Shown: positions 5,704-41,717 of the stretch, one piece after another
How the letters are laid out: the number at the start of each line of letters is the position of its first letter
How positions within the stretch are numbered: the first letter of the stretch is position 1
Assembly (NCBI GenBank): GCA_005881575.1
Contig: VBCA01000005.1
Coordinates: 12,322 to 76,321, forward strand
Length of the DNA stretch: 64,000 nt
Direction of reading: 5' to 3'
Source of the DNA: Betaproteobacteria bacterium
GTDB taxonomy: Bacteria > Pseudomonadota > Gammaproteobacteria > Burkholderiales > SG8-39
The notes under the pieces: generated by a model
Database searches by the model: none
The model's input: only the letters and a program-made list of their open reading frames with translations
What the model was told of the DNA's origin: nothing
Position numbers and translations under genes: made by a program

Positions 5704-5719
5704 AAAACGCAAGGCCGGC

Positions 5720-10545: not shown

Positions 10546-10620
10546 TTCGACACCTTAGCGGATTGACGGCAGCCGCGCAAAACCCGGCTTCCCGGTTCCC
10601 GGACGACAAGATGGCCCGCT

Positions 10621-12443: not shown

Positions 12444-13886
12444 TCAAAGAGACTTTCTCATGCTCACGGAAGGTATCTGCAGCGACTCGCGGTACTTCGC
12501 GATGGTGCGACGCGCGACCACGATGCCCTGCTGGCTGAGGATCTCGGCGATCTTGCTGTCCGAAAGGGGTTTCCGGGCATCCTCGGCGGCAACCAGCTGC
12601 TTGAGCAACGCCCGGATAGCGGTCGCCGAGCACGCACCCCCCGTCTCGGTGGCGACGTGACTCCCGAAGAAGTACTTGAGCTCGAAAATGCCGCGCGGCG
12701 TGAACATGAACTTCTGAGTCGTGACGCGCGAGACGGTCGATTCGTGCAGGCCGAGCGTGTTTGCGATTTCGCGCAGCACCAGCGGCCGCATCCCGACCTC
12801 GCCGTGCTCGAAAAAATGGCGCTGCCGGTCGACGATCGCCTGCGACACGCGCAGGATCGTCTCGAACCGCTGCTGCACGTTCTTGATCAGCCAGCGTGCC
12901 TCCTGCAGCTGATGCGAGAGCTGGCCGCCCGACTGACTGCGGTTGTTCTGCAGGATATCGGCATACATGCGATTGATGCGCAGCTTCGGCAGCGCGTCGG
13001 GGTTGAGGCTCGCCACCCAGACGTTCTTGATTTTCTTCACTACGACGTCGGGCACGATGTAGCGCGTCTCGCTGGTCGAGAACGCGGCGCCGGGACGCGG
13101 GTTGAGGCTCTGGATCAGTCTCTGGGCCTGGCGCAGCTCGTCGTCTCCGCATTGCAGCGCCTTCCTGAGCTTCGAAAAGTCGCGCGCCGCAAGGAGCTGG
13201 AGGTGCTCGTGCGCGACGGCGAGAGCCGTGGCGCGGCTCGGCGTGGACTCGGGCAAGGCGAGCAGCTGCAGCTCGAGACATTCCGAGCAGTTGCGGGCAC
13301 CCACGCCCGTCGGGTCGAAGTTCTGCAGGTGCTTGAGGGCGATGGCCAGCTCTTCGGGCTCGATCTGCAACTCCTCGGGCACGAGCTGAGCGAGCTCCTC
13401 GATGGGCTGCGTGAGATAACCGCCTTCGTCGAGCGCTTCTATCAGGAACGCGACCAGGTTGCGGTCGCGCGGTTCGAGCTGGGTCAGGGAGAGTTGCCGG
13501 TGCAGATGCTCTCGCAGATTGGGAGACTCGGCGGGGACCTGGAAAAAATCGCCGTCATCGGCGTCGTCGCGCGTCCCCGAGCTCGAGCCGCCTTCACCCC
13601 CCCAGTCGGCGTCAGCCGAGAAAATGTCCGTCTGCGGCGGATTCTCGACGCTCGCCTCCTCGGCGGGCGCCTGAAGGGCGGTCGCCGGCTCGCCGTTCAT
13701 GTGCGCGAGGGGTGCCGGAATCTCGCCGTCGGCGTCTTCTCGCTCGAGGAGCGGATTTTCCGCTAGAAATTTCTCGAGCTCCTGATTCAACTCCATCGTC
13801 GAGAGCTGCAGCAGGCGTATCGATTGCTGCAGCTGCGGCGTCAGCGTCAGGTGCTGCGAGAGCTTGAGTTGTAGGGTCTGCTTCAT
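12444..13886 (-). CDS. rpoN: RNA polymerase sigma-54 factor
   Basis: 480 aa. It has the N-terminal region I (MKQTLQLKLSQHLTLTPQLQQSIRLLQLS) and the RpoN box (ARRTIAKYRE). Confidence 0.97.
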   Translation of the reverse strand: MKQTLQLKLSQHLTLTPQLQQSIRLLQLSTMELNQELEKFLAENPLLEREDADGEIPAPLAHMNGEPATALQAPAEEASVENPPQTDIFSADADWGGEGGSSSGTRDDADDGDFFQVPAESPNLREHLHRQLSLTQLEPRDRNLVAFLIEALDEGGYLTQPIEELAQLVPEELQIEPEELAIALKHLQNFDPTGVGARNCSECLELQLLALPESTPSRATALAVAHEHLQLLAARDFSKLRKALQCGDDELRQAQRLIQSLNPRPGAAFSTSETRYIVPDVVVKKIKNVWVASLNPDALPKLRINRMYADILQNNRSQSGGQLSHQLQEARWLIKNVQQRFETILRVSQAIVDRQRHFFEHGEVGMRPLVLREIANTLGLHESTVSRVTTQKFMFTPRGIFELKYFFGSHVATETGGACSATAIRALLKQLVAAEDARKPLSDSKIAEILSQQGIVVARRTIAKYRESLQIPSVSMRKSL

Positions 13887-19515: not shown

Positions 19516-21282
19516 TTACTTTCCCGATGCGGAAACGGCCCTCGCCATGACGAGCAAGGGTTCGACCGCGCTTCGATCCGCGGTGCGCGCTTGCTCGAGG
19601 ATCAGGATCGTCGCATTGACTCGGTGCGGAAACGTTTCCAGGGCTCGCGCGAGCAGACTGCGCGCTTTTTCCGCCTCCCCGCTGAGGGCTAGGAAGACCG
19701 CGCGTCGTGCCACCACCGTATTGGCGGGCCAGTAGCGGGCTACGCGCTCGCTCAGGGCCAGCTTCTCGGCAAGCTCGCTCCGGTCCAGCGGAGCGCCGAT
19801 CAATATCCATAGCTCCGCCAGGGGCGCCATGAGCCCGTGGGTCAGCTCGCGCATGGTTGCGGCGTCCTGTTGTGCTTGGGTGGCAGAGGTGAGCGTAACG
19901 GTTGTTCCGGTGATGCGGGTGACGTCGAGTCGCATGTAATCCCTGAGCATGATCGCCGAGGCGACGGAAAGCACGATGCAGACGGCACCCGCGCTAATCG
20001 CGCTCGCGCGCGCGACCGCCAGCGAGGGCCCCGCTCGCGCGCTTGCTCCTATCAAAAGCGCGGTGACGCCGAGGAAGTGTGCACTCCAGAACGGAAACTC
20101 GGTCAGCGAGTGGATCATTTCGATTCCAACCGCGGCAATGATCCACCACGAAGCGACCTCCCGCCCCGTCCAGTAACGCCGCGCGGCCTGCCACCCCCAG
20201 ACGCACAGACCGCCCAGTACCAGGAGCGTGCCCACCAGGCCGGTTTCGGCAAGGAGGTGCAGGGGAACATTGTGCGGCGAAGTCCAGACTTCACCGATTG
20301 TCGTGAGCGACGGATCAAGCCCGATCTCGAACGCGGCACCGGCGAACTCGCCGGTGCCGACGCCGCCGAAAGGGGCACTGAGAAATACGCGTAGCGCGAT
20401 CAGCCATACCTGCCATCGCGGCTCGCCGTGTTCGAGGCGATCGATTGCCCCTTCACCCGAGGGGCCGAGATGGAGTGCCGCGTTGAGCCACGGCACTGCA
20501 AAATGGGCTGCTAAGACTGCGCCCGCGATTCCGCAGGCAGCAATTTTCGGGCGCCACTTTTGGGCGCCTTCTTGAGTGCGCGCCGCTAGAAACCCGAGCG
20601 CCGCATACCATAGCGCGTAGAGCAGGGTGCCGCGCGAGCCGGACAGCGCGCCGCCCAGAACGAGCAGGGCCAGGGCCGGAAGTGCATACGCCGTCCGCAC
20701 TCGCTCGCGCAGCCACAGGAACAGGAGCGCGCCTTCCCCGAGCGCCAGGTAGTTGGCATAAAGATTCGCTTGGGCGATGTTTCCGTAGGCGCGGTTGCCG
20801 TGCAGCTCGGCGACGACATCCTCGAACAGCTTGGGTCGGCCATAGAACTGCATGACCCCCGCCAGCGAATTCGCAAGAGCGCCGGCCAGAAGAAACATGG
20901 CCAGTACCGTCGCCACGCGCGCGATACCGAGCTCAGCCGTGAGTTGTGCCCCGAGCCAAATCATCAGCGCGGCGTAGAGGACGTACAGCGCAGCGACCAC
21001 GGGCAATTGGGAATAGACGTGCCCGCCGCTCGCCGCCTGGGCGGCGAGAAACGCCGCGAAGACGATCAGCCATAGCGCCGGCACGGGCGAGGACACGAAG
21101 GATACGGCCGTGACACCTCGCCCGACGAGCAGGGTCAGCGCGGCTGCAATGCCCAGCGCTGCGGCCAGCCATCCGGGGAAAAAACTCAGGATGGGCTGCT
21201 GGTGATACGCCAGCAGGAACGGCAGCAGACACAGGCTGCCCGCGAGCAACAGGCTTATTGTTTGGCCCGAGCTTGTCTTCAC
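19516..21282 (-). CDS. PglL/TfpO-type O-antigen-ligase-family protein (predicted pilin O-oligosaccharyltransferase)
   Basis: 588 aa, polytopic. The N-terminus (LLPFLLAYHQQPILSFFPGWLA) resembles the PglL_A signature, the middle is Wzy_C-like, and the helical C-terminal domain resembles Wzy_C_2. It lies directly downstream of two pilin genes. GTG start. Confidence 0.7.
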   Translation of the reverse strand: MKTSSGQTISLLLAGSLCLLPFLLAYHQQPILSFFPGWLAAALGIAAALTLLVGRGVTAVSFVSSPVPALWLIVFAAFLAAQAASGGHVYSQLPVVAALYVLYAALMIWLGAQLTAELGIARVATVLAMFLLAGALANSLAGVMQFYGRPKLFEDVVAELHGNRAYGNIAQANLYANYLALGEGALLFLWLRERVRTAYALPALALLVLGGALSGSRGTLLYALWYAALGFLAARTQEGAQKWRPKIAACGIAGAVLAAHFAVPWLNAALHLGPSGEGAIDRLEHGEPRWQVWLIALRVFLSAPFGGVGTGEFAGAAFEIGLDPSLTTIGEVWTSPHNVPLHLLAETGLVGTLLVLGGLCVWGWQAARRYWTGREVASWWIIAAVGIEMIHSLTEFPFWSAHFLGVTALLIGASARAGPSLAVARASAISAGAVCIVLSVASAIMLRDYMRLDVTRITGTTVTLTSATQAQQDAATMRELTHGLMAPLAELWILIGAPLDRSELAEKLALSERVARYWPANTVVARRAVFLALSGEAEKARSLLARALETFPHRVNATILILEQARTADRSAVEPLLVMARAVSASGK

Positions 21283-21301
21283 TCAGAGTCGGCCGGAAAC
21301 G

Positions 21302-21327
21302 AAAAGGCCCGCGCGAGCGGGCCTTTT
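21302..21327 (-). terminator. Rho-independent terminator/attenuator after the pilin genes
   Basis: The sequence is AAAA-GGCCCGC-gcga-GCGGGCC-TTTT, a perfect 7-bp GC stem flanked by A and T tracts. It sits 20 nt after the pilin-1 stop and before the ligase gene. Confidence 0.75.
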
Positions 21328-21346
21328 GCGGTGACGGGAGGCGTGG

Positions 21347-22018
21347 TTAAAAAGCCTTGCAGACCAGGTACTGACTCACCCCGGTTTCCACATAGCCCGT
21401 GGCCGGGGTTGCGGCCAGGTCAGGATTCGCGGTGGTCTGCAGTTGCGCGCGCACCTGGCCGGTCGCCGAGTTGCTGTCGTCGATCTGCGAGTCTATCGCA
21501 ATCGCGACCTTGTCCGGTATATTCGAGCTGCATAGCGTCAGACCGGTGAAGCCCAGACCGACTGTCGGGACCACTGCGTTCTCCACGCCGACGATGCCTC
21601 CGGCCGCGTTCGGCGGATTCGTCGCGGCGCCGCTTCCCGTGGTCAAGCCCGCGACGAATCCGGCGATGCGCAAGTGTTGCCAGAACAAGTGGGATTCCTT
21701 CGTAAGGTCGACGTCATTGTACTTGCCTGCGATGACCCCGTTGCCGTCACCGCTTGCGGGAGCCTGGACGGTCCAGCGCGCGGTGGCATTCGGGTCGTCT
21801 CCGGGGAGGGCGCGGTAACGGTCCTGGTAGGAGGTCACGGCCACGGCGACCCCGTTGAAATCGTTGATCGCGTTTTTGATCTTGGCCTGGGTGATCATTT
21901 CCTGGCCCTTCAGGATGCCGCCCAGGAGCAGTCCGATGATGACGAGCACGATCGCGATTTCGACCAAGGTGAAACCGGCCTCGGTCGAATTTCTGTTGCT
22001 GAAAGCAGATGCGGTCAT
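21347..22018 (-). CDS. Type IV pilin-like protein, paralogue 1 (prepilin-type N-terminal cleavage/methylation domain)
   Basis: The sequence MTASAFSNRNSTEAG|FTLVEIAIVLVIIGLLLGG has G-1, F+1 and E+5. Two Cys residues (LCSSN..., YLVCKAF) could form a C-terminal disulfide loop. GGAGG lies 6 nt upstream of the ATG at 22018. Confidence 0.85.
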   Translation of the reverse strand: MTASAFSNRNSTEAGFTLVEIAIVLVIIGLLLGGILKGQEMITQAKIKNAINDFNGVAVAVTSYQDRYRALPGDDPNATARWTVQAPASGDGNGVIAGKYNDVDLTKESHLFWQHLRIAGFVAGLTTGSGAATNPPNAAGGIVGVENAVVPTVGLGFTGLTLCSSNIPDKVAIAIDSQIDDSNSATGQVRAQLQTTANPDLAATPATGYVETGVSQYLVCKAF

Positions 22019-22085
22019 AGGAGCCTCCAAAGCGCAGAAGTCTAGGTCAGTCGGGGGAAACGTGCACGAGCTGGTTGTTGAGCGG

Positions 22086-22781
22086 CTATAAGTTCTTGCA
22101 CAGCAGATACTGATTCACCCCGGTTTCCACGTAGGCCGTCGCCGCGCCTCCGGCGTCGCTAGCCGTAGGCGGATTCGCGGTGCCCTGGAGCTGCCCGCGG
22201 ATCTGGCCGGTCGCCGGGTTGCTGTCGTCCATCTGGCCGTCGACCGCGCTCGCCACCTTCTCCGGCAGGTTCGCGAAGCACACGATCAGGCTGGTGAAAC
22301 CCAGGCCGTTTGTGCCGGGCGCGCCCGACTCCACGCCGATCATGCCCCCGGCTGCATTCGTCGGCTGCGTCCCGCTTCCGGCTCCCGTGGTCAGGCCCGG
22401 GACGAATCCGGCGATGCGCAGATGCTGCCAGAACAGGTTGGATTCCGCTGCTGAGGTCGGGGCGCCCGCCCCTGGAAGGGCGTTGTAAAGGCCCGCGATG
22501 ATCCCGTTGCCGTTACCGCTTGCGGGATTCTGGACGGTCCAGCGTGTGGTGGCGTTCAAGTCGTCTCCCGGAATGGCGCGGTAGCGGTCCTGATAGGACG
22601 TCACGGCCACGGTGATGCCGTTGAAGTCGTTGACGATGTTCTTGATCTTGGCCTGGGTGATCATTTCCTGGCCCTTGAGCACGCCGCCCAAGAGCAGCCC
22701 GATGATCACGAGCACGATTGCGATCTCGACCAAAGTAAAACCCGCCTCGGTCGAATTCTTGCTGAAATTGGACAAACTCAT
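22086..22781 (-). CDS. Type IV pilin-like protein, paralogue 2
   Basis: It reads MSLSNFSKNSTEAG|FTLVEIAIVLVIIGLLLGG and is roughly 70% identical by eye to paralogue 1. The ATG at 22781 lies about 33 nt downstream of the predicted sigma-54 transcription start. Confidence 0.85.
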   Translation of the reverse strand: MSLSNFSKNSTEAGFTLVEIAIVLVIIGLLLGGVLKGQEMITQAKIKNIVNDFNGITVAVTSYQDRYRAIPGDDLNATTRWTVQNPASGNGNGIIAGLYNALPGAGAPTSAAESNLFWQHLRIAGFVPGLTTGAGSGTQPTNAAGGMIGVESGAPGTNGLGFTSLIVCFANLPEKVASAVDGQMDDSNPATGQIRGQLQGTANPPTASDAGGAATAYVETGVNQYLLCKNL

Positions 22782-22825: not shown

Positions 22826-22840
22826 GCAAAATATGTGCCC
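22826..22840 (-). promoter_or_regulatory. Sigma-54 (-24/-12) promoter of the pilin genes
   Basis: The minus strand reads GGGCAC-atatt-TTGCG, compared with the consensus TGGCAC-N5-TTGCW. The GG/GC spacing is exact, and it lies 45-60 nt upstream of the pilin-2 ATG. Confidence 0.75.
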
Positions 22841-22851
22841 GAGAGTATACC

Positions 22852-22930
22852 CGGACACGCCACTTTTCATCGTGGGTGAGTCAGCCCTTTTTGTTGAAAA
22901 ATGGACACTTACGACGACTATCTGACACTT
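22852..22930 (-). promoter_or_regulatory. Candidate enhancer (UAS) with three GTGTC repeats
   Basis: The minus strand reads aaaGTGTCag-(N13)-aaGTGTCca-(N46)-gcGTGTCcg. The first two repeats are 20 bp apart. They lie 15-90 bp upstream of the -24 element in an AT-richer stretch. Confidence 0.45.
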
Positions 22931-22934
22931 TGCC

Positions 22935-23657
22935 TTAGTTCTTCCCCGGGGTCTTTCCGATCCGCGCTTCCAGTTGTTTCAGGCGCTCATCCAGGAATCT
23001 CAGCTCGGCCGGGTCCTTCACTCTCCCGCTTTGGAGATACCCCCCGATGATGAGACGGGCGGTTTCCAGCTCGTTCATGTCTTCCAGGATGAAGATCTCC
23101 ATCTGCTTCGCCCAGAGGGGAACGTCGTCGGCGACGGCGTAGCGCTGGATCGCTCGAGCGTAGCGGAGTGCGAGCGGCAGATCATGGAGCCGGTGCTTGG
23201 CGATGGCGGTGGCATGGGCAAGCCAGGGCCAGCGACGATTGGGATCGAGCAGGAACTGCCGATAAACGAACTCGAGCATGCTGCGCTGCTTGGCCTCGAC
23301 GGGCACTTCGGCATACAGCCTGCTCGCGGCGAGGAGGGGGTATTGGCCTCGCGGGTCCAGATCCAGTATTCTCGCGAGCCAAGCTTCCAGCCGGCCATAA
23401 TCGAGATCGCGATAGGGGACCTTGCTGCCGGATTGATAGTCGAACGCCTGTAAGTACAGCATCAGTGCCTTGCCGAGCGCCACGGGATCCCCGAAGCTCG
23501 CGAGCCTGAGCGCGGCGATGCTCGGCGCGGGCGCCAAATCCTCTGCCGCCGCCCGGGGCGGCGGGGCGGTGGCCTTCAGCCCGATCTGCGCGGCGAGCCC
23601 CAGAGCGAACAGCACGAGAACGCCACGCGGCACTACTGCAATCGATCGCTGTGACAT
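22935..23657 (-). CDS. Hypothetical exported/membrane-anchored helical protein (no family recognised)
   Basis: 240 aa with an N-terminal hydrophobic segment (VLVLFALGLAAQIGL) followed by a helical-repeat-like sequence. It starts 3 nt after the permease gene, so it is probably co-transcribed. Confidence 0.6.
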   Translation of the reverse strand: MSQRSIAVVPRGVLVLFALGLAAQIGLKATAPPPRAAAEDLAPAPSIAALRLASFGDPVALGKALMLYLQAFDYQSGSKVPYRDLDYGRLEAWLARILDLDPRGQYPLLAASRLYAEVPVEAKQRSMLEFVYRQFLLDPNRRWPWLAHATAIAKHRLHDLPLALRYARAIQRYAVADDVPLWAKQMEIFILEDMNELETARLIIGGYLQSGRVKDPAELRFLDERLKQLEARIGKTPGKN

Positions 23658-23660
23658 CGT

Positions 23661-24620: not shown

Positions 24621-26357
24621 ATGACCCAGGGTATGGCGACGACTGCCGCGCTTCAGATTTCTCAGCTTTTCATCGCGAGGTCATGGCGAGCTCTTTTTGT
24701 CGTCATGCTGGTGTCCCTGCATCTTGCCGCGATGTGGGGTACTGAGGATTACTGGGCGCGCGGCTTGATGCTCGCGCACTTCGGGCTTTTCATCCTCTGG
24801 CAGCCCTTCATGCGTAGCGAGCATCGCCTGACCTCGGCGCAGGTTGCGGCGATCGCTGCGATTGCGTTGGGGACCCTCTATTTCCTCAACTGGTGGCTGC
24901 TCGCCCTCTGGGTCAGCGTTCTGGCGGGAATCGTGGGCGGCAAGGTGTTCCTCTTCCAGGCACGGTGGCTGCGGCGCTTCTATCTCGTGGTGTTGCTGTA
25001 TCTCGTCTCGCTGCTGCTCATTTGGATCGTCCCGAACACCTTTCGTGTGCCCCTGCCCAATGAGGTCGAATTGCTGGCGCAATACGGCTTGCCCGTGCTG
25101 TTCCTCGTGATGGTTGCGATTCCCGCCGAGACGGACTCCGCGGAAACTCCCCAGGTCGTCGATTTTTTCTATGCCGCGATGATCGTGCTGCTGCTGATCG
25201 CCCTTGCGCTGGGCAGCTTTGCCTTCATGACGGTGGGCAAGATCGACTACATCATGGCTCTTTCGTTCAGCATGCTGATCATAGCGGGCGTGCTGCTGCT
25301 ACTCTCCTTCGCCTGGAACCCGCGCGCCGGATTCAGCGGGCTTTCCGTATATTTCTCGCGCTATCTGCTGTCGATAGGGCTGCCGTTCGAGCGCTGGCTG
25401 TATTTCTTGGCCGAGCTGTCGCAGCTCGAGACCAAGCCCGAGCGCTTCATGAAAGAGGCCTGCGTCGGCCTCGCGCGCCTACCCTGGGTGTCCGGCGGCT
25501 TCTGGCACACGGCGGGTGAGTCGGGCGATTTCGGCAAGGTCTCCAAGAACTCCGTCGAGTTCACCAACCAGGAAATCCACTTGCGGGTTTTCACCAAGCT
25601 GGCGTTGAGCCCTTCGCTGGTCTGGCACTTCCAGCTGCTCGGACAGCTTCTCGGCGAGTTCTATGTCGCCAAGCAGCGCGAGCAGAAACTCCAGCAGCAG
25701 ACCTACGTGCAAGCCGTTCACGAGACCGGGGCGCGCATGACGCACGACGTGAAGAACCTGCTGCAGTCTCTGAACGTTCTGTGCGCGGCCGCCGAGCGCG
25801 ATACCGCATCCGATGCAGACGGCGAACTGTCCTCGCTCATGCGCCGACAGCTCCCGGCGATTACGCTGCGCTTGCAGCAGACGCTCGACAAGCTGCAAAA
25901 GCCCGACGCGAGTAACGGTCGTTTCATCAAGGCCGATACGTGGTGGGAGGGCCTGCAGCGCAGCTATGCCGGTCGTGGCGTCGAGTTTTCCCGCGAGGGG
26001 CAGGGGGACTCCGTGATGCTGCCGAAGGAGCTCTTCGACAGCGCGGGCGACAATCTGCTGCAGAATGCGCTGCGAAAGCGCAGACTCGATGAATCCGTCG
26101 CCGTGCGCGCGACCTTCCGCTGCAACGACACCATCGAGTTTTCCGTGTGCGACAGCGGCGCTCCGGTGGCCGCGGAAGTGCTGCGTGGGCTGATGAGGGG
26201 GCCGGTGCCTTCGGAAACCGGATTCGGCATCGGCCTGTACCAGACCAGCCGGCTCGCCGAAATCTCGGGATTCTCGCTGCAACTGCGAGACAACGAGAGT
26301 GGCCGGGTGTGCTTCAGCCTGCGGGGAGAAGTGCGCCGCGGCGCACGCGGGCAGTGA
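24621..26357 (+). CDS. Multi-pass membrane sensor histidine kinase (PilS/PrsK-like)
   Basis: 578 aa. The first ~300 aa contain many TM helices. It has an H-box (ARMTHDVKNLLQSL) and an HATPase_c domain (DNLLQNALRK..., G.GIGLYQ). Confidence 0.85.
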   Translation: MTQGMATTAALQISQLFIARSWRALFVVMLVSLHLAAMWGTEDYWARGLMLAHFGLFILWQPFMRSEHRLTSAQVAAIAAIALGTLYFLNWWLLALWVSVLAGIVGGKVFLFQARWLRRFYLVVLLYLVSLLLIWIVPNTFRVPLPNEVELLAQYGLPVLFLVMVAIPAETDSAETPQVVDFFYAAMIVLLLIALALGSFAFMTVGKIDYIMALSFSMLIIAGVLLLLSFAWNPRAGFSGLSVYFSRYLLSIGLPFERWLYFLAELSQLETKPERFMKEACVGLARLPWVSGGFWHTAGESGDFGKVSKNSVEFTNQEIHLRVFTKLALSPSLVWHFQLLGQLLGEFYVAKQREQKLQQQTYVQAVHETGARMTHDVKNLLQSLNVLCAAAERDTASDADGELSSLMRRQLPAITLRLQQTLDKLQKPDASNGRFIKADTWWEGLQRSYAGRGVEFSREGQGDSVMLPKELFDSAGDNLLQNALRKRRLDESVAVRATFRCNDTIEFSVCDSGAPVAAEVLRGLMRGPVPSETGFGIGLYQTSRLAEISGFSLQLRDNESGRVCFSLRGEVRRGARGQ

Positions 26358-26391: not shown

Positions 26392-27360
26392 TCAGGGCAG
26401 GCGCCCGGCAGCGACCATGCGGCTGATGAGCGCGCTGGAGGAAATCATGACCACGATGTCGTCGAATTCACAGGGCGGAGCCACGCTCTGCGGCGCTGGT
26501 GGGGGGGAAGGATCGACGCAACCCGCTGCGGAAGGCGTACGCGTTCGGCTGTAGAAGGCCCAGCTCGAGTAGCCCCCTGAGGGGGTGGCGGTTGTGTTGC
26601 CGTTGACATTGGCGGCTTCGTCGTTGCCGGTCGGTATGGGGTTAAGCCGCGTGCCGTTCGTCTGCCAGGCGCCGAAGCCGTTCTTGCCGTGCGAAATGAA
26701 TATCGCGGGCAAGGCCGAGCCCAAAGGAACGGCTGTCGTGGTCGAATCGCCTCGGGTGAAGACCGCGATGTCACCCAGCGAACACAGAGCGAACGACGAG
26801 AGCGCGGGGGCGGGTGAAAGTACGAAAGGCGCTACAAGCGGCGGAGCGGACGGAGGGCAGGTCGGATTTTGATCCGCGGGACTTTGACGAAAGGGGGCGA
26901 CCTGTGAAGGAAAAGTACCAGGAACGGCGTTTTGGCGCGATTGCCACGTGTTTAGACTAATTGCGTCCGCGAACGCAGGCGCTACACGATAGCTGAGCCG
27001 TCTCCCCCAAGCGTCAGTCTCAGAGACTCCCAGAGTTGTCCATGGCACTACGCCGAACACAATGTAGCAACGGTTGTTGTTGGGGTCCCACTGCTCGGCG
27101 CCAGCGCCAACCGGCGTAGCCCAAGTCGTGGTGTCAACCGTCCCCGCGGGCGTCCCGCCATTCGCCGGACACGGAAGGCGCCCGTTTGCCTGGGCGAATC
27201 CGATAATCGCATCCCTGATCGAATCCATACTGCGCTTAGTATCGGCCGAATTGCGCACGTCGATCTGGGTGGAGAGCGGAATCAAAGCGCCAGCGAGCAG
27301 CAAGGCGATGATCGCCAACGCCACCGCAAGCTCGACGAGCGAGAAACCCTTACTGCTCAT
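26392..27360 (-). CDS. Large minor (pseudo)pilin with prepilin-type N-terminal cleavage/methylation domain
   Basis: 322 aa. The sequence MSSKG|FSLVELAVALAIIALLLAG has G-1, F+1 and E+5. It is the last gene of the assembly operon. Confidence 0.8.
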   Translation of the reverse strand: MSSKGFSLVELAVALAIIALLLAGALIPLSTQIDVRNSADTKRSMDSIRDAIIGFAQANGRLPCPANGGTPAGTVDTTTWATPVGAGAEQWDPNNNRCYIVFGVVPWTTLGVSETDAWGRRLSYRVAPAFADAISLNTWQSRQNAVPGTFPSQVAPFRQSPADQNPTCPPSAPPLVAPFVLSPAPALSSFALCSLGDIAVFTRGDSTTTAVPLGSALPAIFISHGKNGFGAWQTNGTRLNPIPTGNDEAANVNGNTTATPSGGYSSWAFYSRTRTPSAAGCVDPSPPPAPQSVAPPCEFDDIVVMISSSALISRMVAAGRLP

Positions 27361-27370
27361 CGCGCTGGAT

Positions 27371-29098
27371 TCAGGGCGAAACGACCACGACCCGGTCGTT
27401 GATCGCAGTGGGGACGCCCGATCGGTGTTCGAAGATCAGGTCTGCCGGCGTGGCATTCTGCCCTTCAAGATAGTTCGCGAGGGTCCCCGGGCGGGTCTGG
27501 CCGTCCAGCGCGCGGCCTGCAAAGATCAGGATCACCTGCTTGTTGTTGTTTGGGGCCGGGAGATTGTTTACCGTCAGGCAGGTGGTTCCCGCAGTGCAGG
27601 GGGGGCTGGGGCTGGCACCGGGTAGGTAATTCTGAGAGACCGCGTAGTAACTCTGGCGATACCACTGGTTCGAAGTGAACCAGGTGATATTTGGATTGGT
27701 AGGACTTGCGTTGGTAAGGCGCGGCAAATAGGACGGCGCGGGGAGAGGAACGGTGATCGTGACCCTGCCGATGGTGTCCCGTGCATTCTGCAGCCGCCCG
27801 GTGTAGGTGACCACACCTCTTCCGTCCGCCCGCGCCGCAAAGCTCAGTGTGGGCGGGTTGCGCGGACTAGTCGCGCTAAAGCCCTCACTCCATTGGCCGA
27901 ATGACGTGTTGACGAGCGGAGTGCCGTTCCGGTTGACCATCACTATAGTCGAATCGTTAGGGGCAACCATGGACGGGGTATCGGCAAACGCCAAGCTCGC
28001 GTTCGCCAGGAGAATCTCAAGCTTGATGTCAGGGCGAGCGTCGCTGTGGGCGATGTCGCCGCAGCAATAGTCAACCGTACAGGTCACGGTAAGCGGCGGC
28101 GGAGGCGAACTTATCGAGCAGATCGCAGGATTGGGGGAGATAGTATCTGGGGGAGACTTTATCGCCACATCGTAACTCCCCGTGCCCGACCCGACGATAT
28201 CCGTGACGGTAGCGCTCGCCCAAGTGAGCCACGCCGGATCGTTCGTCACGGGCAGCAAGCCCATCGTCTGATTTGACGCGCCCTGATAGGCGGACTGCGC
28301 GGTAGGCGGCGCGACAAACGGCATGGCAAATGGGTAGGCGCCCCATTTGCCGAAATAGTCCAGGAGGAGGGGTTTGACGTCGCGCTCGATCCGCGCGGCG
28401 ACGACCGGTTCGACCGCTGCCATCAGGTCGGCCTGTGTGATCACGACCAGGCGATCATTCGCCGTGTCAGAGGGCGTGGCAACGGTGCTGAACCCATAGT
28501 CGGGTGTACTCGGCGTGACTCCTTCTAGATAGGCAGCGGGATCGTTGTGCTGGGCTATCCGGTCTTGCCCCGAAAACGCCGCGCCGGGAGCAATAACGAC
28601 GGCGACCACATTGCTTGCAGGCGCTGCGCCAGTGACAGTGAGCAAGCCGGGAGTATCGCTATTGATGATGTTGGCCGCATTCTTGTAAAAGTTGGACGAA
28701 ACCGCGTACCATAAACGCTCTCCGCTTGCGTCTCTCAGATCTTCGCCGCCTATCGTCGCCCACGGCAAGCGACCGACGCGATCGGCGGCGGCAGAGCAGA
28801 TTCCCGGCGACGCACCGGTGTCGTTGTTGTCAGGGCAAGGCAGCCCACCGGGTTGGTTTGTCGTTTGCCCCTTGTACAACTGCCACTGCTCGTTGGCGGC
28901 GTACGCAATCAGCGCCGCCTTCGCTTTCCTCAGCGCGCTCATGCTGCGATCCTCGCGCTCGTTGGAGTTCCCGGCGCTGGTGAGGTTGAGGGCGCTGGCT
29001 ATAAGGAAGGCGCTGATCAAAGCGGCCAGGGCGAGGAGCGCGATCAACGCAAAGCCGCGCCGACCCGACGCCCTCTTACGCCATGCCCGGATCCTCAC
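27371..29098 (-). CDS. Large pilus-associated protein with an E5-less pseudopilin-like N-terminus (GspK/PilX-like; possible tip or adhesin subunit)
   Basis: 575 aa. The sequence RRG|FALIALLALAALISAFLIA has G/F but Ala at +5. It shares a Cys-containing module with the 322-aa pseudopilin. The GTG start overlaps the upstream stop (GTGA). Confidence 0.6.
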   Translation of the reverse strand: MRIRAWRKRASGRRGFALIALLALAALISAFLIASALNLTSAGNSNEREDRSMSALRKAKAALIAYAANEQWQLYKGQTTNQPGGLPCPDNNDTGASPGICSAAADRVGRLPWATIGGEDLRDASGERLWYAVSSNFYKNAANIINSDTPGLLTVTGAAPASNVVAVVIAPGAAFSGQDRIAQHNDPAAYLEGVTPSTPDYGFSTVATPSDTANDRLVVITQADLMAAVEPVVAARIERDVKPLLLDYFGKWGAYPFAMPFVAPPTAQSAYQGASNQTMGLLPVTNDPAWLTWASATVTDIVGSGTGSYDVAIKSPPDTISPNPAICSISSPPPPLTVTCTVDYCCGDIAHSDARPDIKLEILLANASLAFADTPSMVAPNDSTIVMVNRNGTPLVNTSFGQWSEGFSATSPRNPPTLSFAARADGRGVVTYTGRLQNARDTIGRVTITVPLPAPSYLPRLTNASPTNPNITWFTSNQWYRQSYYAVSQNYLPGASPSPPCTAGTTCLTVNNLPAPNNNKQVILIFAGRALDGQTRPGTLANYLEGQNATPADLIFEHRSGVPTAINDRVVVVSP

Positions 29099-29544
29099 GG
29101 CTTGCGCTCGCGTTCCTCGGAAGGAGTCGTGATTCTGCCGCTTGCGGCGGGATCTCTGATCTCGCCGCGGACCTTGTCGAGCGTCTGCCCGATCTTGAGG
29201 GTGACCGACGGCGCGCCCTCGCCGCCGGGCAGGGTCACCCGGGCCGGATCGAGGGGTTTCCTCGCGCTCTCCTGTGGAACCCCGTTGATCCAGGTCGTGC
29301 TCCGGCCCGAGGAGCGCGACACTTGGCCGTTGACCGTGACGGTGCTCTCGACGACGACCGCGGTTTCCTGGATGTTGGCCTGGCGGCGGCGGTCGAGGTC
29401 CTGGCGCTCCTGCTCGGTGAAGAAGAGGCGCCCGAGATTCTGCTGGGCGGCGACCTGCCCCGTCGCGACTCCGAGCAGAAATGTCACCGCGAAAAGGCGT
29501 CTCGCGAGTTTCACGTGCCTTCCGATGGTTAGTTTGCGTTGCAT
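29095..29544 (-). CDS. Small secreted protein of the pilus operon (MshK/PilP position), function unassigned
   Basis: 149 aa from the ATG at 29544, with a signal peptide (LFAVTFLLGVATGQVAAQQ). It lies between the PilO-like and pseudopilin genes. Confidence 0.5.
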   Translation of the reverse strand: MQRKLTIGRHVKLARRLFAVTFLLGVATGQVAAQQNLGRLFFTEQERQDLDRRRQANIQETAVVVESTVTVNGQVSRSSGRSTTWINGVPQESARKPLDPARVTLPGGEGAPSVTLKIGQTLDKVRGEIRDPAASGRITTPSEERERKP

Positions 29545-29552
29545 GCGTCGGC

Positions 29553-30167
29553 TCAAGCGGGCTTGAGCCCTCTGACCGAGATCAGGTCGACCTGGCACTC
29601 GGCCCGAAGGCGTGGTCGCAGCGTCGTCGTGCCCGGTGCCGCCCCGCGCTCTATCCGCGTCACGGTGCAATTCCGCACGGACACGTGCGCCTTGATGCCT
29701 GCCTGCAGGTCTGCCAGGAAATTCAGGAGATCCCCCTCGTGCAGCAGCAGCATGTCGAGTTTCAGCCTGCTCACCACAAAGTCGGCGCCGCCGGTTGGTA
29801 CCAGCCCGGGATAGTCGAGCGGTCTTTGGGCTTCGAAGTTGTACCTGATCTCGAAGAGCTTGCGATCGTTTTTGATCCTGGCGATCGATTCGATCCAGTC
29901 GAGGCGGCTCTGCTCGCCCACGACACCGCGTTGGCGCATCTGCTCGTAGTACACGAGATCATCGCGGATCTCGCGCTCTTCCTCCGAGACTCTTAGGACC
30001 CGTTCCTGGGCCGCCACGCGGGTCAGTCTGGTTGCGTCCTGCGCCGTTCTCGCCTCGTCCAGGTAGTATCCGCTGGCGATCAGGCTGGCTGCACCCAGCA
30101 CGAGCAGTATGATCGCCATAGCGAGCGGCATGCGCAGGCGCTTGAGGTCGTCGCGGGTGACGTTCAT
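29553..30167 (-). CDS. PilO/MshJ-like bitopic pilus assembly protein
   Basis: 204 aa with a single N-terminal TM (PLAMAIILLVLGAASLIASGYYL), a coiled-coil-like stretch and a C-terminal globular part. Its ATG overlaps the stop of the upstream PilM/N-like gene (ATGA). The assignment rests on architecture and position. Confidence 0.5.
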   Translation of the reverse strand: MNVTRDDLKRLRMPLAMAIILLVLGAASLIASGYYLDEARTAQDATRLTRVAAQERVLRVSEEEREIRDDLVYYEQMRQRGVVGEQSRLDWIESIARIKNDRKLFEIRYNFEAQRPLDYPGLVPTGGADFVVSRLKLDMLLLHEGDLLNFLADLQAGIKAHVSVRNCTVTRIERGAAPGTTTLRPRLRAECQVDLISVRGLKPA

Positions 30168-31738
30168 GTGCCGCGCCGCTTGACGACTACGACTGAGAAC
30201 TGCGGCACTTCCTCTCTCCTCGCCGCACCGATATCGCCGGCGAGGCTTTTTTCCGCGTTGATGTCGAACGGCAGCTGCGTGCGCGTCACTTCGGTGCCGG
30301 GCCGCCTGCGCAGCGCCTCGGTAAACTGGTTCACCAGCGCGGTCACGGCGCGGAAGTCCGAGGCCTGCTGCACGACGAGCTTGCCCGCAATCTCGGCGGT
30401 TTGGGTCTGAAACTCGGCGCCCGCGGCCTGTGCCTGCCCTGCCGGCGGGGCGGAAGGGGTCTTCGACGCCTCGCGGCCGGCTGCCGATTTCGCGCCGGCG
30501 CCGAACTCCCAATCGATCCTGTCGATTTCAATCTGGGGTAGAGCCGTTACCGCTTCGCTGATCTCGTTGAACATCCCGCCGGGCGAACCGCTCTGCCGCA
30601 GCAGCGCCCGGTAGTTCTTGACGACCGCTTTCAGGGTTTCGCTGGAGATCGGCGTCTTCGGGAAGCGCGTTTGCAGTCGAGCGTATTCCACGGAGGCGCG
30701 GGCTTCCTGTACGCGGTCATTGTGAGCCTGCTCGGAGACATGAAGGACATCAAGAAGTCTCACCGCCGAAACGAGCAGGCAAAAGGCGAACACCGCCGCC
30801 CCGGTGGCAAGCAGGGCCACGCGCGCGCGCCACAAATGATAGGAGCGCCGCAGGCGCTCGTCGGCATACTGTTCGCGGGACGGGTACGCGGCGAGGACGT
30901 GGAGAAACAGCCCCTCGGCGAGCGTCTCGGCGGGCACCGATTTGAGGCCCAGGCCGCTGCCCACCTTGTCGAGGTCGTGAACATGGAACTGCAGCCGGGC
31001 GGAATTGACGCAGGCCGCGTCGTAGAGCGCCTTGTGCCCGCTCGGCGCAAGCACGAGCACGTCGAGCGCAGGCGCCTCGCGCGGCAGAATACGGCTGTTG
31101 ACGAGATACTGCTGGATCCGCAGGGACTCGGCGGCGCAATCCTGGGCGATCACGCGGGGATCGGAGGAGTCCACGCGGCCGAGGCGCGAGAAGCGGATTC
31201 GGCCGTTTTCGATGTAGCTTTGCCGCAGTCCGGCGTGCTGCCGGCTCACCATCAGGTATCGCCCACCCTTGAAACCGAGTCGCTTCCCCATCTGAGCCGC
31301 GACGAGGGCCACTGAAAATACGCCGACCACGCAGGCATCGTTCGAGCGCAAGGCCTCGAGCCAGGGCTGGAACAGCTGCGTGTTGGTAAACGACATGTAG
31401 AGAATCCGTTCCTCGCGCCGGCCCGCGTGGGTCTCCGACCCGAGCGAAAGCGGGAGGGCGAGCGACGCGTCGCGGTAACGCTGGGCGAGCTTGCGCGCAA
31501 GCAGCGCGCGCCGGTCCGCGCCGCGCACGTAAGGTATGTTCTCCTGAAAGAAGTCTTCCTCGACCATGTCGGCGAGCAAGTAGAAAAGACTTCCCGGGGC
31601 GCCGGCCGCGTATCTGGAGAACTCGGCGACGCCTTTCTCGTTCATGTCGAAAACGCCTTCCCTGTGCAGCTCGCCCTTGGTCCATAGATAGGCGGTGACT
31701 CTCTGGGAAGTGAGGTAACAGAGACGTTTGCTCGGCAC
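30164..31738 (-). CDS. MshI-like (PilM/PilN-type fusion) pilus assembly protein
   Basis: 524 aa. It has a ~300-aa cytoplasmic domain, one TM (VALLATGAAVFAFCLLVSAV) and a ~200-aa periplasmic part. It lies immediately downstream of the GspF homologue. Confidence 0.5.
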   Translation of the reverse strand: MPSKRLCYLTSQRVTAYLWTKGELHREGVFDMNEKGVAEFSRYAAGAPGSLFYLLADMVEEDFFQENIPYVRGADRRALLARKLAQRYRDASLALPLSLGSETHAGRREERILYMSFTNTQLFQPWLEALRSNDACVVGVFSVALVAAQMGKRLGFKGGRYLMVSRQHAGLRQSYIENGRIRFSRLGRVDSSDPRVIAQDCAAESLRIQQYLVNSRILPREAPALDVLVLAPSGHKALYDAACVNSARLQFHVHDLDKVGSGLGLKSVPAETLAEGLFLHVLAAYPSREQYADERLRRSYHLWRARVALLATGAAVFAFCLLVSAVRLLDVLHVSEQAHNDRVQEARASVEYARLQTRFPKTPISSETLKAVVKNYRALLRQSGSPGGMFNEISEAVTALPQIEIDRIDWEFGAGAKSAAGREASKTPSAPPAGQAQAAGAEFQTQTAEIAGKLVVQQASDFRAVTALVNQFTEALRRRPGTEVTRTQLPFDINAEKSLAGDIGAARREEVPQFSVVVVKRRGT

Positions 31739-31743
31739 GGCGT

Positions 31744-32949: not shown

Positions 32950-32982
32950 GTTCGATTGCGTCGGCCCTGCGCGGGCCCGCGC

Positions 32983-34710: not shown

Positions 34711-34718
34711 CGAGAGGG

Positions 34719-37855: not shown

Positions 37856-37965
37856 TTTTCCGTGGAAGTATAACAATACCACGTAACAAACTGATTTAAC
37901 AAACCAAAAGAACCACAGCGCCCCTCCGATTGGACCTTCGGCGGCCCGCGCAAACCGGGCGATTG

Positions 37966-39384: not shown

Positions 39385-39412
39385 CGATCCCTCCCGGAGC
39401 GGGCCGCTGGCC

Positions 39413-41555: not shown

Positions 41556-41717
41556 AAGGCAGCCCTTCGTGGGGAGGCGTCGATGATAGCGCAAAGACGG
41601 CGCTCTTTCACGGCGAAACTCCGATTGCCGCGCGATCGCTCGAGAGCGGCCCAGGTATGTCGTGGCGCGCCTTTCTGGGCTAGAATTCGCCCTTCGCGTA
41701 ATCCCGAGCAGGAAATC

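Follow-up and report, generated by a model that had tools for sequence, protein, structure and literature searches.

Two adjacent genes on the minus strand of the window (the whole 64-kb stretch of DNA that was analyzed) encode pilin-like proteins. The upstream gene, pilUp (22086..22781), encodes a prepilin of 231 aa with a 14-residue leader (MSLSNFSKNSTEAG) and a mature protein of 217 aa, and the downstream gene, pilDn (21347..22018), encodes a prepilin of 223 aa with a 15-residue leader (MTASAFSNRNSTEAG) and a mature protein of 208 aa. Both ORF lengths are reproduced by public gene callers, and both products possess the class III signal G|FTLVE with Glu at +5, as the sequence-only reading of this DNA had stated. 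The Pfam family N_methyl (PF07963) recognizes pilUp (25.7 bits) and pilDn (25.6 bits) above its cutoff of 21.2, and TIGR02532 gives 20.9 (cutoff 16.3). Both proteins are accordingly assigned to the type IV pilins with a class III signal, which are characterized by Gly at -1, a hydrophobic residue at +1, Glu at +5 and a hydrophobic stretch of ~20 residues. The ribosome-binding site of pilUp is GGGGG, which is weaker than the GGAGG reported earlier for the 223-aa pilin; the latter is indeed found 5 nt upstream of the ATG. The leaders had been described as unusually long, which holds in comparison with type IVa pilins but not within the sub-clade, where 15 residues is the most frequent length (96 of 180 homologues) and 14 residues occurs in 21 of the 180; the leaders of remoter relatives consist of 6-7 residues. 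A leader of 14-15 residues is therefore normal for the sub-clade and lies inside the known range of type IV pilins. A word-indexed search gave at least 8000 homologues of pilUp, and the family comprises at least 208 clusters at 50% identity (E <= 1e-30). Its members are currently labeled only as [quoted passage not shown]; Pfam, NCBIfam and PDB sequence searches recognize the N-terminal helix alone, and no named family covers the globular domain.

Upstream of pilUp, a sigma-54 type -24/-12 promoter element (GGCACatattTTGC, 22826..22839, minus strand) ends approximately 45 nt 5' of the ATG. It is the single exact match to GGCAC-N5-TTGC within the 64-kb window, where the strict form TGGCAC-N5-TTGCW with up to one mismatch gave no site. 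By itself the match is not significant, as at least one match occurred in 40 of 100 shuffles. The site is convincing because it is kept in relatives: of 78 related loci, 65 have GGYAY-N5-TTGC at a distance of 63-130 nt 5' of the first pilin copy, and only 1 of 21 later copies is preceded by it. The 67-nt intergenic spacer (22019..22085, minus strand), which holds the GGAGG of the second gene, contains neither a sigma-54 element nor, as judged by folding, a terminator. Its folding energy of -12.8 kcal/mol is weaker than that of 199 of 200 shuffles (shuffled mean -19.2), in line with the earlier remark that no terminator separates the genes. Internal pilin copies elsewhere are likewise followed by a terminator-like hairpin in only 7 of 20 cases. 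Behind pilDn, an intrinsic terminator hairpin, AAAAGGCCCGC-ucgc-GCGGGCCUUUU, with a U-rich tail is located at ~21293..21327 (minus strand); the 68-nt stretch holding it (21283-21350) folds at -24.8 kcal/mol (z = -2.3), and our own scan of 76 loci found a homologous GCCCGC/GCGGGC hairpin behind the final pilin copy in 59 of them. A generic terminator scan missed this hairpin and flagged another one overlapping the sigma-54 element, which was resolved by direct folding and the cross-locus scan. Both the sigma-54 element and the strong terminator had been overlooked in the sequence-only reading. The arrangement supports the prediction that pilUp and pilDn are co-transcribed as a bicistronic operon. 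The gene for sigma-54 itself, rpoN (12444..13886, minus strand; Sigma54_AID, Sigma54_CBD and Sigma54_DBD), lies outside the pilin locus in an lptA-lptB-rpoN context.

The pilin genes are situated at the end of a single-locus cluster of the MSH type (26392-42515), and the cluster, the pilins and their neighbors are all contained in the 19.5-42.5 kb part of the window. Directly 5' of the pilins is a gene for a 240-aa protein of no recognized family (22935-23657, minus strand), preceded by an ABC-2 type permease gene (23661-24425, minus strand), and this placement is kept in nearly all related loci. A multi-pass membrane sensor histidine kinase (24621..26357; HATPase_c, with PrsK below threshold) is encoded divergently on the plus strand; its position is conserved, and the kinase may be the partner of the cluster's sigma-54 activator. 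On the minus strand, the region 26392..31738 contains the gene for a minor-pilin-like protein of 322 aa (26392-27360) with a 5-residue leader (MSSKG|FSLVE), together with those for a 575-aa protein starting with G|FALIALL and three conserved proteins without a family match, which are presumed to be assembly or tip components. There follow, on the same strand, a platform protein with T2SSF domains by Pfam (31744-32949), an extension ATPase with an MshEN domain and a c-di-GMP motif (32983-34710; MshE-related motif 58.5 against a cutoff of 38), a TPR protein identified by Pfam (34719-36050), an MshL-type secretin (36047-38260; 251.2 against a cutoff of 250.2 for the NCBIfam MshL equivalog) and an AAA_22/SPOR ATPase that by Pfam resembles MshM/ExeA (37966-39384). 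The head of the cluster encodes an NtrC-family sigma-54 activator with a receiver domain (39413-40837, minus strand) and an ABC ATPase of 561 aa (40830-42515, minus strand). About 70 of 80 related loci have retained this gene order, and the pattern of a sigma-54 element before the first pilin copy and a terminator behind the last recurs across about 78 metagenome-assembled loci of related Burkholderiales.

Judging from these domain assignments, the cluster belongs to the MSH type, as MshL, an MshE-like ATPase, a T2SSF platform and pilins are all predicted in it; the MshM component is represented by the AAA_22/SPOR protein only. No prepilin peptidase (Peptidase_A24) was found among the ORFs scanned in the window, and MSH loci are typically single loci without a prepilin peptidase (PMC6668835). 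The locus resembles the MSHA loci described by Denise et al. 2019 (PMC6668835) in its single-locus organization, its MshL secretin, its MshE ATPase with an N-terminal c-di-GMP motif, its T2SSF platform, the TPR protein resembling MshN, the AAA_22 protein resembling MshM, the several pilin-like genes and the lack of a prepilin peptidase among the genes identified. It differs from them in that the host is an uncultured soil member of Burkholderiales (Betaproteobacteria), the pilins belong to an unnamed large family (208-217 aa when mature) with a predicted fold nearest to type IVb, and several assembly proteins match no family. The locus also carries additional genes, namely those for a sigma-54 two-component pair and an ABC transporter, which are joined by a PglL-like gene in part of the family.

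The PglL-like gene of the window (19516..21282, minus strand) lies directly 3' of the pilin operon and encodes a candidate PglL-family O-oligosaccharyltransferase of 588 aa; enzymes of this family attach a lipid-linked glycan to Ser or Thr of an acceptor protein. Pfam recognizes Wzy_C (44.6 bits, cutoff 31.7) and Wzy_C_2 (69.7 bits) in this protein, and PglL_A (PF15864) stays below its cutoff of 25 with 17.9 bits. The protein matches a solved 610-aa "Oligosaccharyltransferase" (9rmk_A, E = 1.2e-25), and the residues conserved in this comparison, counted to N. meningitidis numbering, are Q178, N180, R224, R298, P313, G316, G318, H349, H400, E404 and P406. In PglL, R224, R298 and H349 are catalytic, and Q178, N180, G316, G318, H400, E404 and P406 are PglL-specific (PMC3643930). 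The PglL/PglS class, with which the length of 588 aa agrees, uses internal glycosylation sites, whereas TfpO/TfpM systems have an OTase of 420-470 aa and a pilin with a C-terminal Ser or Thr as the glycosylation site (PMC9829042, Table 2). C-terminal glycosylation of the TfpO/TfpM type was rejected for the present locus, since the OTase is of 588 aa, the two pilins end in Leu and Phe, and none of 180 homologues has a Ser/Thr terminus. A D-x-N-x-T motif following alpha1 (DLNAT; DQNAT in many homologues) was likewise set aside as an N-glycosylation sequon because its Thr is not conserved (NAG, NAA, GAT) and no PglB-type enzyme was seen. The pilins are probably O-glycosylated at internal Ala/Thr/Pro/Ser-rich surface loops by the adjacent PglL-family enzyme. 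The PglL-like gene adjoins the pilins in only about 26 of 80 loci and lies beyond the terminator; therefore, it may encode a general enzyme or may not act on pilins. Neighborhoods with pglL beside one or two pilin genes are documented in Betaproteobacteria (Schulz et al. 2013, PMC3643930), including contexts given as "pilin, 2" in Polaromonas, Ralstonia pickettii and Chromobacterium. A PglL-family gene in the same orientation beside the pilins and the conserved PglL-specific residues are common to those neighborhoods and the present locus, whereas here the pilins are of a different family, the machinery locus is MSH-like, a terminator precedes the OTase gene and glycosylation is putative.

The fold of pilUp was modeled with AF2 from an alignment of 88 sequences (pLDDT 85.4, pTM 0.76); an earlier model from 16 sequences gave a pLDDT of 34 and was discarded. 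In the model, residues 17-67 make up alpha1, and the strands and helices beyond it form an alpha/beta globular domain. C168 and C228 are invariant among the 88 sequences. The predicted structure thus shows the lollipop fold of type IV pilins, with a long alpha1, an alpha/beta head and a C-terminal disulfide-bounded region. The significant Foldseek matches of the model are all type IV pilins, including CofA (9iuf, 2.7e-5) and TcpA (8uhf), with probabilities of 0.97-1.00 at 10-16% identity and modest TM-scores of 0.35-0.53 that derive partly from the long helix. A profile-to-PDB sequence search matched alpha1 of Neisseria PilE.

Type IVa major pilins have a leader of about 5-10 residues and Phe at +1, and type IVb major pilins have a leader of ~15-30 residues, a residue other than Phe at +1 and a mature size of ~190-200 residues, together with a fold and a machinery of the type IVb kind. 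The type IVa class was rejected, as Phe at +1 fits but the leaders of 14/15 residues and the mature sizes of 217/208 residues do not. As for type IVb, the size fits and the leader of 14-15 residues is borderline; the +1 residue is Phe, the machinery is MSH-like and the TM-scores to CofA and TcpA are those given above. These two type IVb major pilins are the best structural neighbors and resemble the present pilins in size, in the longer leader and in a Cys-Cys span of ~60 residues; the present pilins differ in having Phe at +1 as in type IVa, a low identity to them and a machinery that is not of the type IVb kind. Another point of comparison is the large type IVa major pilin of M. xanthus, the gene of which, pilA, depends on sigma-54 via PilS/PilR, adjoins the ABC transporter pilGHI and encodes a leader of ~12 residues. 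Structurally characterized type IVa pilins have a mature size of less than ~165 residues with large exceptions including M. xanthus PilA, which resembles the present pilins in its mature length (208 residues versus 208/217 here) and in having its additional mass in the C-terminal globular domain (PMC11046646). In contrast, the two share only a weak N-terminal sequence similarity (NF041775, E = 0.0026), no M. xanthus structure is among the Foldseek matches, and the machinery here is MSH-like rather than canonical type IVa.

pilUp and pilDn are 70% identical over their full length. The sequence-only reading had proposed a conserved-variable-conserved layout, the first part of which is borne out by the highest identity at the N-terminus (86% at residues 15-95 of pilUp); identity then falls to 63% at residues 96-216 and is 73% in the tail (residues 217-231), so that the layout is a gradient rather than a sharp cassette. 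The mature proteins are identical through +19 and 91% identical over residues 1-55. Two indel-rich patches, 100-114 and 203-216 in pilUp numbering, consist of 30% Ala plus Thr, Pro and Ser; the variable loop of pilDn is shortened (DVDLTKES), and the Ala/Pro/Ser-rich loop is absent from this copy. The whole family has a matching conservation profile, as the copies differ at columns that are variable family-wide (entropy of 1.61 bits where the copies differ versus 0.50 bits where they are the same, p = 8e-18). The 35-nt identical block that had attracted attention is present in both genes (AAGGGCCAGGAAATGATCACCCAGGCCAAGATCAA). Its length is not beyond chance when compared with codon-column shuffles (P = 0.07 when the entire gene is considered, P = 0.15 for its N-terminal 95 codons), and the exact block is found in 12 of 99 family genes of other genomes.

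Such a pair might be regarded as a substrate for recombinational variation (antigenic or phase), with pilin diversity arising by gene conversion between the two genes, as had also been suggested earlier. The archetype is the pilE/pilS type, in which the donor cassettes are silent, lack a promoter and are truncated at the 5' end, and sequence is frequently transferred non-reciprocally into an expressed gene. Like the Neisseria system, the present one has several pilin-related sequences per genome, a PglL-type glycosylation system and pilins that are conserved at the N-terminus and variable in the C-terminal half. Traces of exchange also exist among related genes: the PHI test on 11 clade genes is significant (observed 0.449, permuted mean 0.550, with none of 2000 permutations reaching so low a value, P < 0.0005), the signal is centered on the variable loop, the nearest neighbors of this loop mix upstream and downstream copies (the window's pilUp with the downstream copy of locus L008, 89%; the upstream copy of L005 with the downstream copy of the same locus), and the two copies of the distant locus L039 are 98.8% identical at the nucleotide level. 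For the two genes of the window, however, four tests of recent gene conversion were negative, namely the longest-run permutation, segmental dS, sliding nearest-neighbor analysis and population contigs. dS between pilUp and pilDn is 0.42-0.53 in every mature segment without any low-dS tract, and in alpha1 a dS of 0.525 is accompanied by a dN of 0.057, from which the near-identical N-terminus is ascribed to purifying selection and not to gene conversion. In sliding windows of 30 codons, neither copy is clearly nearer to its partner than to orthologues of other genomes, and in coarser segments the partner ranks first in one only, by one point (86% versus 85%). The 231 plus 223 arrangement is kept, with 0-4 nt differences per gene, in all sixteen contigs that represent this population in various soil metagenomes, and the pilins vary no more than neighboring genes do. 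Soil assemblies that carry the population include those of the ERZ272xxxxx and ERZ2857xxxx series at ENA and JGI 3300026530 and 3300026301. Each copy is a complete gene that has a start codon and a ribosome-binding site of its own, with one promoter common to both; neither is a silent truncated cassette, and a pilE/pilS-type mechanism was rejected on these grounds. Historical recombination thus exists in the clade, but no recent conversion is detectable between pilUp and pilDn, and a role of the pair in recombinational variation is very improbable. pilDn clusters with its downstream counterparts in L002, L003 and L005, and the upstream copies form a separate orthologue group; the tandem duplication is old and precedes the split from at least four related species. 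Each copy is under purifying selection in comparison with its orthologues (dN/dS ~0.24-0.33).

A more serious competitor, although still unlikely, is that one paralogue is the main subunit and the other is a low-abundance or specialized pilin (an alternative subunit, a capping or priming subunit or an inventory regulator) that is co-transcribed without bulk co-polymerization. By ORF call, a single pilin copy is present in 57 of 78 related loci; therefore, one subunit suffices and a second is not required for the filament. A cultured carrier of the locus, Pelomicrobium sp. G1 (L046), likewise has one copy. Furthermore, the C-terminal region bounded by the disulfide bears a signature specific to each copy, CF[SA]NLPEKVASAVDGQMDD in upstream and C[ST]SN[IV]PDKVAIA.D.Q.DDSNSATGQVRAQLQ in downstream copies. 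The persistence of these signatures in different species suggests that the copies have specialized functionally, and the missing loop of pilDn and the unequal ribosome-binding sites point in the same direction. On the other hand, both pilins are full-length, their mature N-terminal parts are nearly the same as described above, the invariant Cys pair is retained, purifying selection on the two copies is similar, and separate minor-pilin-like genes of a different architecture are already present in the locus. The least probable reading is a type II secretion-like exporter, in which pilUp and pilDn would be pseudopilins of a short periplasmic piston. In its favor, NCBIfam ranks GspG and GspH first for the N-terminal 35-60 residues, although no score reaches the threshold, and GspF and GspE match the platform and the ATPase well, again with scores under the cutoffs. 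This reading is opposed by the mature size of 208-217 aa with a disulfide-bounded C-terminal region, as compared with a GspG model of 134 positions that is matched over the N-terminal ~60 residues only, and by Foldseek matches to pilus subunits instead of pseudopilins. Moreover, the secretin passes the MshL equivalog and not GspD, the ATPase carries the MshE-type c-di-GMP motif, and none of the GspC, L, M, I, J and K families was detected among the cluster proteins searched.

The explanation that we consider likely is a bicistronic operon of paralogous structural, major-type pilins that belongs to a single-locus type IV filament system of the MSH type. Transcription would begin at the one sigma-54 promoter 5' of pilUp, presumably activated by the NtrC-type response regulator of the cluster together with the membrane histidine kinase, and would read through pilUp and pilDn to the hairpin behind pilDn. 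A prepilin peptidase encoded elsewhere would cleave both prepilins after Gly-1, and the MshE/MshG/MshL-like machinery would polymerize both subunits via their almost identical alpha1 helices, with the adjacent PglL-family enzyme probably O-glycosylating the internal surface loops. The pair is an old tandem duplication retained by purifying selection, with differences residing mainly in the surface-exposed C-terminal half. The earlier suggestion of two co-expressed subunits is accordingly favored by anatomy and comparison, i.e., the single promoter, the lack of an internal terminator, the hairpin at the end and the purifying selection. An old, stable pair of duplicates read from one promoter is nothing unusual and does not amount to a mechanism that shuffles surface proteins. 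A broader and rather improbable extension would be that these proteins define a widespread family of large pilins, so far without a name, that have a type IVb-like fold and are used by MSH-type machinery in uncultured Burkholderiales of soil and groundwater. In this family, recurrent tandem duplicates (1-3 copies, independent in several clades) would form mixed filaments of subunits with differing glycosylatable loops, as exemplified in the window by an Ala/Pro/Ser-rich loop in one copy and its deletion in the other, allowing the tuning of glycan density or the evasion of phages without recombination.

Current understanding is not challenged by the pilUp/pilDn locus, the value of which lies in annotation: the members of a very large and vaguely labeled family can now be interpreted as structural pilins of a conserved MSH-like pilus locus under sigma-54 control. 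Such loci are common among uncultured Burkholderiales of soil, and a PglL-type glycosylation gene often accompanies them. The locus is also a worked negative example: gene conversion should not be deduced simply from tandem pilins that share a conserved N-terminus and a 35-nt identical block and vary in their C-terminal half. If it is true that the two subunits co-assemble with different glycosylation, the system would provide a simple natural model for heteropolymeric pili.

The two tandem pilin genes, the upstream pilUp (22086-22781, minus strand; 231 aa) and the downstream pilDn (21347-22018, minus strand; 223 aa), form a real paralogous pair, as the sequence-only reading had claimed; gene callers in public assemblies obtained the same two lengths. 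Class III signals with Glu at +5 are present in both proteins (MSLSNFSKNSTEAG/FTLVE with a 14-residue leader in pilUp, MTASAFSNRNSTEAG/FTLVE with a 15-residue leader in pilDn), N_methyl is the sole Pfam family above threshold for either, and the NCBIfam matches are confined to the N-terminal helix (alpha1). The leaders, described as unusually long, do have 14-15 residues, but the same length is found in 117 of 180 close homologues, with 6-7 residues in more distant ones, so that the long leader is a sub-clade trait. Full-length identity is 70% for the proteins and 77% for the DNA. Along pilUp, identity to pilDn is 86% at residues 15-95, 63% at residues 96-216 (where 13 gap columns cluster in patches 100-114 and 203-216) and 73% at residues 217-231; the proposed conserved-variable-conserved layout is thus a gradient rather than a cassette.

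The AlphaFold2 model of the pilin, based on an 88-sequence alignment (pLDDT 85.4, pTM 0.76), places alpha1 at residues 17-67, followed by a long loop and then by helices and strands to the C-terminus. Every PDB match with a Foldseek probability over 0.4 is a type IV pilin, and the closest folds are those of the type IVb pilins CofA (9iuf, E = 2.7e-5) and TcpA (8uhf), at a TM of only 0.35-0.53. At the sequence level, the profile extends no further than alpha1 and the beginning of the alpha-beta loop of Neisseria PilE. The +1 residue is Phe in both pilins, as in type IVa pilins, and the mature sizes of 217 aa (pilUp) and 208 aa (pilDn) lie in the "large pilin" range, described for M. xanthus as uncommon among type IVa pili (PMC11046646). 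Just past alpha1, residues 73-78 of pilUp read D-D-L-N-A-T (D-D-Q-N-A-T in many homologues), matching the bacterial PglB N-glycosylation sequon D/E-x-N-x-S/T; its Asn and Ala are invariant among homologues and its Thr is variable, no PglB-type enzyme was seen, and the motif is probably structural. Several clades of related loci (L010, L026, L030, L039 and others) carry an extra Cys pair in the alpha-beta loop, for example FCTGACP or TTCTYN...AAAECNLFW, which suggests an additional disulfide there; the pair is absent from both pilins studied here.

The sequence-only reading took the pair for either two co-expressed major subunits or a substrate for recombinational variation. Regarding the second proposal, the 35-nt identical block on which it drew exists, and the PHI test on 11 genes of this clade was significant (observed 0.449, permuted mean 0.550, 0 of 2000 permutations as low). 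Because upstream and downstream copies are also mixed among nearest neighbours in the variable loop, some historical exchange has occurred in that loop. Recent conversion between pilUp and pilDn is another matter. In a neighbour-joining tree and by segment-wise nearest neighbours, pilDn groups with the downstream copies of the related loci L002, L003 and L005, and the upstream copies of L001, L002, L003, L005 and L007 form one group, which supplies the nearest neighbours of pilUp by segment, with pilUp itself lying just outside both groups in the tree. These separate groups indicate that the duplication is older than these species. Between pilUp and pilDn, dS is uniform over all mature segments (0.525 in alpha1, 0.424 over the next 33 aligned codons, 0.423 in the loop and 0.520 in the rest), and dN is 0.057 in alpha1 but rises to 0.32 in the C-terminal part, which points to purifying selection on alpha1 rather than recent homogenisation. 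No 30-codon window placed either copy clearly nearer to its partner than to orthologues, and only one coarser segment ranked the partner first, by a single point (86% vs 85%). Codon-column shuffling gave no significance for the 35-nt run (P = 0.07 over the whole gene, P = 0.15 in the N-terminal 95 codons); the exact 35-mer occurs in 12 of 99 family genes and, with up to two mismatches, in 43 of 99. The columns at which the two genes differ also vary family-wide (1.61 vs 0.50 bits, p = 8e-18, 86 other members). Uniform dS, the window comparisons and the sharing of the 35-mer with other genes argue against recent conversion, and by their dN/dS of 0.24-0.33 against orthologues both copies are functional.

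The population is likewise stable. Sixteen contigs, each from a soil metagenome assembly, were anchored either by the pilUp protein (six) or by the 240-aa protein encoded upstream (ten); one ENA sample contributed to both sets, and the MAG GCA_005881935.1 was included. Every contig has the 231+223+588 arrangement, and each pilin gene differs at 0-4 nt, no more than the flanking genes do. This near-invariance argues against ongoing shuffling of the pilin genes in this population, and together with the uniform dS and the non-significant 35-nt run it leaves recombinational variation unsupported for this genome. As for co-expression, the 67-nt spacer between the genes holds no terminator-like structure and GGAGG stands 5 nt ahead of the pilDn start, both as the sequence-only reading had stated. 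GGCAC-N5-TTGC, the core sigma-54 motif, has a single match in the window, at 22826-22839 (minus strand), ~45 nt upstream of the pilUp ATG; alone, this match is not significant, but in 65 of 78 loci GGYAY-N5-TTGC precedes the first pilin copy by 63-130 nt, and it precedes a later copy in only 1 of 21. Behind pilDn comes a GC-rich hairpin with a U-tail, part of a 68-nt stretch that folds at -24.8 kcal/mol. A homologue of this hairpin stands after the last pilin copy in 59 of 76 loci, but after an internal one in only 7 of 20. From these positions, here and in related loci, the transcription unit would consist of one sigma-54 promoter, two cistrons and one terminator, and co-expression of pilUp and pilDn is supported by this comparative anatomy. 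A 9-bp hairpin flagged as terminator-like (GTGTCCGGG-tatact-CTCGGGCAC, 22835-22858, minus strand) includes the -24 GGCAC of the sigma-54 element in its 3' arm, and could be a terminator of the upstream 240-aa gene or serve in promoter occlusion.

Past the terminator lies a gene for a 588-aa PglL-like protein (19516-21282, minus strand), which matches the solved 610-aa "Oligosaccharyltransferase" 9rmk_A (E = 1.2e-25), a chain that by residue counting follows N. meningitidis PglL numbering. The catalytic residues R224, R298 and H349, the WaaL-shared P313 and the PglL-specific Q178, N180, G316, G318, H400, E404 and P406 listed by Schulz et al. (PMC3643930) are all conserved in it; its PglL_A motif scores under the cutoff. 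Its size agrees with the PglL/PglS class, which glycosylates internal sites, and not with the TfpO/TfpM class (420-470 aa), which glycosylates a C-terminal Ser or Thr (PMC9829042); none of 180 homologous pilins ends in either residue. Neisserial PglL substrates are flexible, low-complexity regions (PMC3643930), the same kind as the Ala-, Thr-, Pro- and Ser-rich variable patches 100-114 and 203-216, and the neighbouring enzyme may glycosylate the pilins. The gene is missing from most related loci, adjoining the pilin gene(s) in ~26 of 80, and pglL homologues beside one or two pilin genes have already been listed for several Betaproteobacteria (Schulz et al., PMC3643930). In L013, L021, L023, L024 and L030 it adjoins the pilin gene on the opposite strand, so the association is positional and independent of co-transcription. 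In the population contig L094, the PglL-like region (6583-8168) is disrupted or divergent, with small ORFs and 26 differences over 1307 aligned nt; both pilin genes are intact.

The pilin pair ends a minus-strand cluster running from ~42.5 kb down to 19.5 kb. This begins with a 561-aa ABC ATPase (40830-42515, minus strand; its ABC domain confined to residues 341-481), an NtrC-family sigma-54 activator with a receiver domain, an AAA_22/SPOR ATPase (37966-39384, minus strand) and a secretin (36047-38260, minus strand) passing the NCBI MshL equivalog model (251.2 vs 250.2). The mechanical ORF calls of the latter two overlap by ~295 nt, and the secretin probably starts further downstream than called. 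Then come a TPR protein, an extension ATPase that combines an MshEN domain with an MshE-related c-di-GMP motif (58.5 vs 38), and a T2SSF platform protein, followed by four genes of 575, 191, 319 and 524 aa by overlapping ORF calls (27371-31738, minus strand), syntenic in most related loci and without a Pfam or NCBIfam match; the 575-aa protein has a pilin-like start, RRG/FALIALL, without Glu at +5. Next come a 322-aa minor-pilin-like protein with a 5-residue leader, a divergently transcribed membrane histidine kinase, and an ABC-2 permease and the 240-aa protein (22935-24425, minus strand), which directly precede the pilin gene(s) in nearly all related loci; the 240-aa protein had no match in the family search. 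The 588-aa protein, with Wzy_C/Wzy_C_2 domains, is last, after the two pilins. Housekeeping genes flank the cluster (kefB-like, kdsD, lptCAB, rpoN and hprK on one side; mla, murA and his genes on the other), with rpoN, encoding sigma-54, at 12444-13886 (minus strand) in an lptC-lptA-lptB-rpoN-...-hprK context ~8 kb from the pilin promoter. In Myxococcus, the PilGHI ABC transporter adjoins pilA, and the ABC-2 permease, 240-aa protein and 561-aa ABC ATPase may be a similar arrangement. The ORFs scanned in the window include no prepilin peptidase, as in MSH (MSHA-type) systems, which are encoded in single loci that all lack one (Denise et al., PMC6668835).

The pilin family is very large and unnamed, with at least 8000 proteins by word-indexed search, almost always called [quoted passage not shown] where named, and with 208 clusters at E <= 1e-30 and 7955 at E <= 1e-10 in a library clustered at 50% identity. 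Species-representative genomes hold 391 loci, nearly all in MAGs of uncultured Burkholderiales/Betaproteobacteria from soil and groundwater; among the 80 listed, only the record of Pelomicrobium sp. G1 bears no MAG or environmental-bin label. About 70 of the 80 loci retrieved share one gene order: platform, five conserved genes, kinase (opposite strand), ABC-2 permease, 240-aa gene, one, two or three pilins, optional PglL and kefB (opposite strand). Tandem-pair identity ranges widely, some pairs falling below 50% at the protein level. In another family branch, the L039 copies (10001-11425, a MAG) share 98.8% nucleotide identity (dS 0.03), which points to a very recent duplication or to conversion. 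The L042 copies (9194-10681; 93.5% protein identity, dS ~1.0) have been kept almost identical by selection over a long time. This spread shows recurrent duplication and long retention. The second copy in L007 (5234-5849) matches as two fragments in separate reading frames (5234-5512 and 5505-5849), which would fit a frameshifted pseudogene as well as a misassembly.

Ordinary pilin biology explains the features of the pair: the assembly helix is strongly constrained and the exposed head variable, the two genes would share a single sigma-54 promoter and a single terminator, and a PglL-type enzyme is encoded alongside. Taken as a whole, the locus is an MSH-like pilus system, as yet uncharacterised, of soil Burkholderiales; its pilins belong to a large unnamed family with a predicted fold resembling that of type IVb pilins; the locus merits annotation, and belongs to kinds already known.
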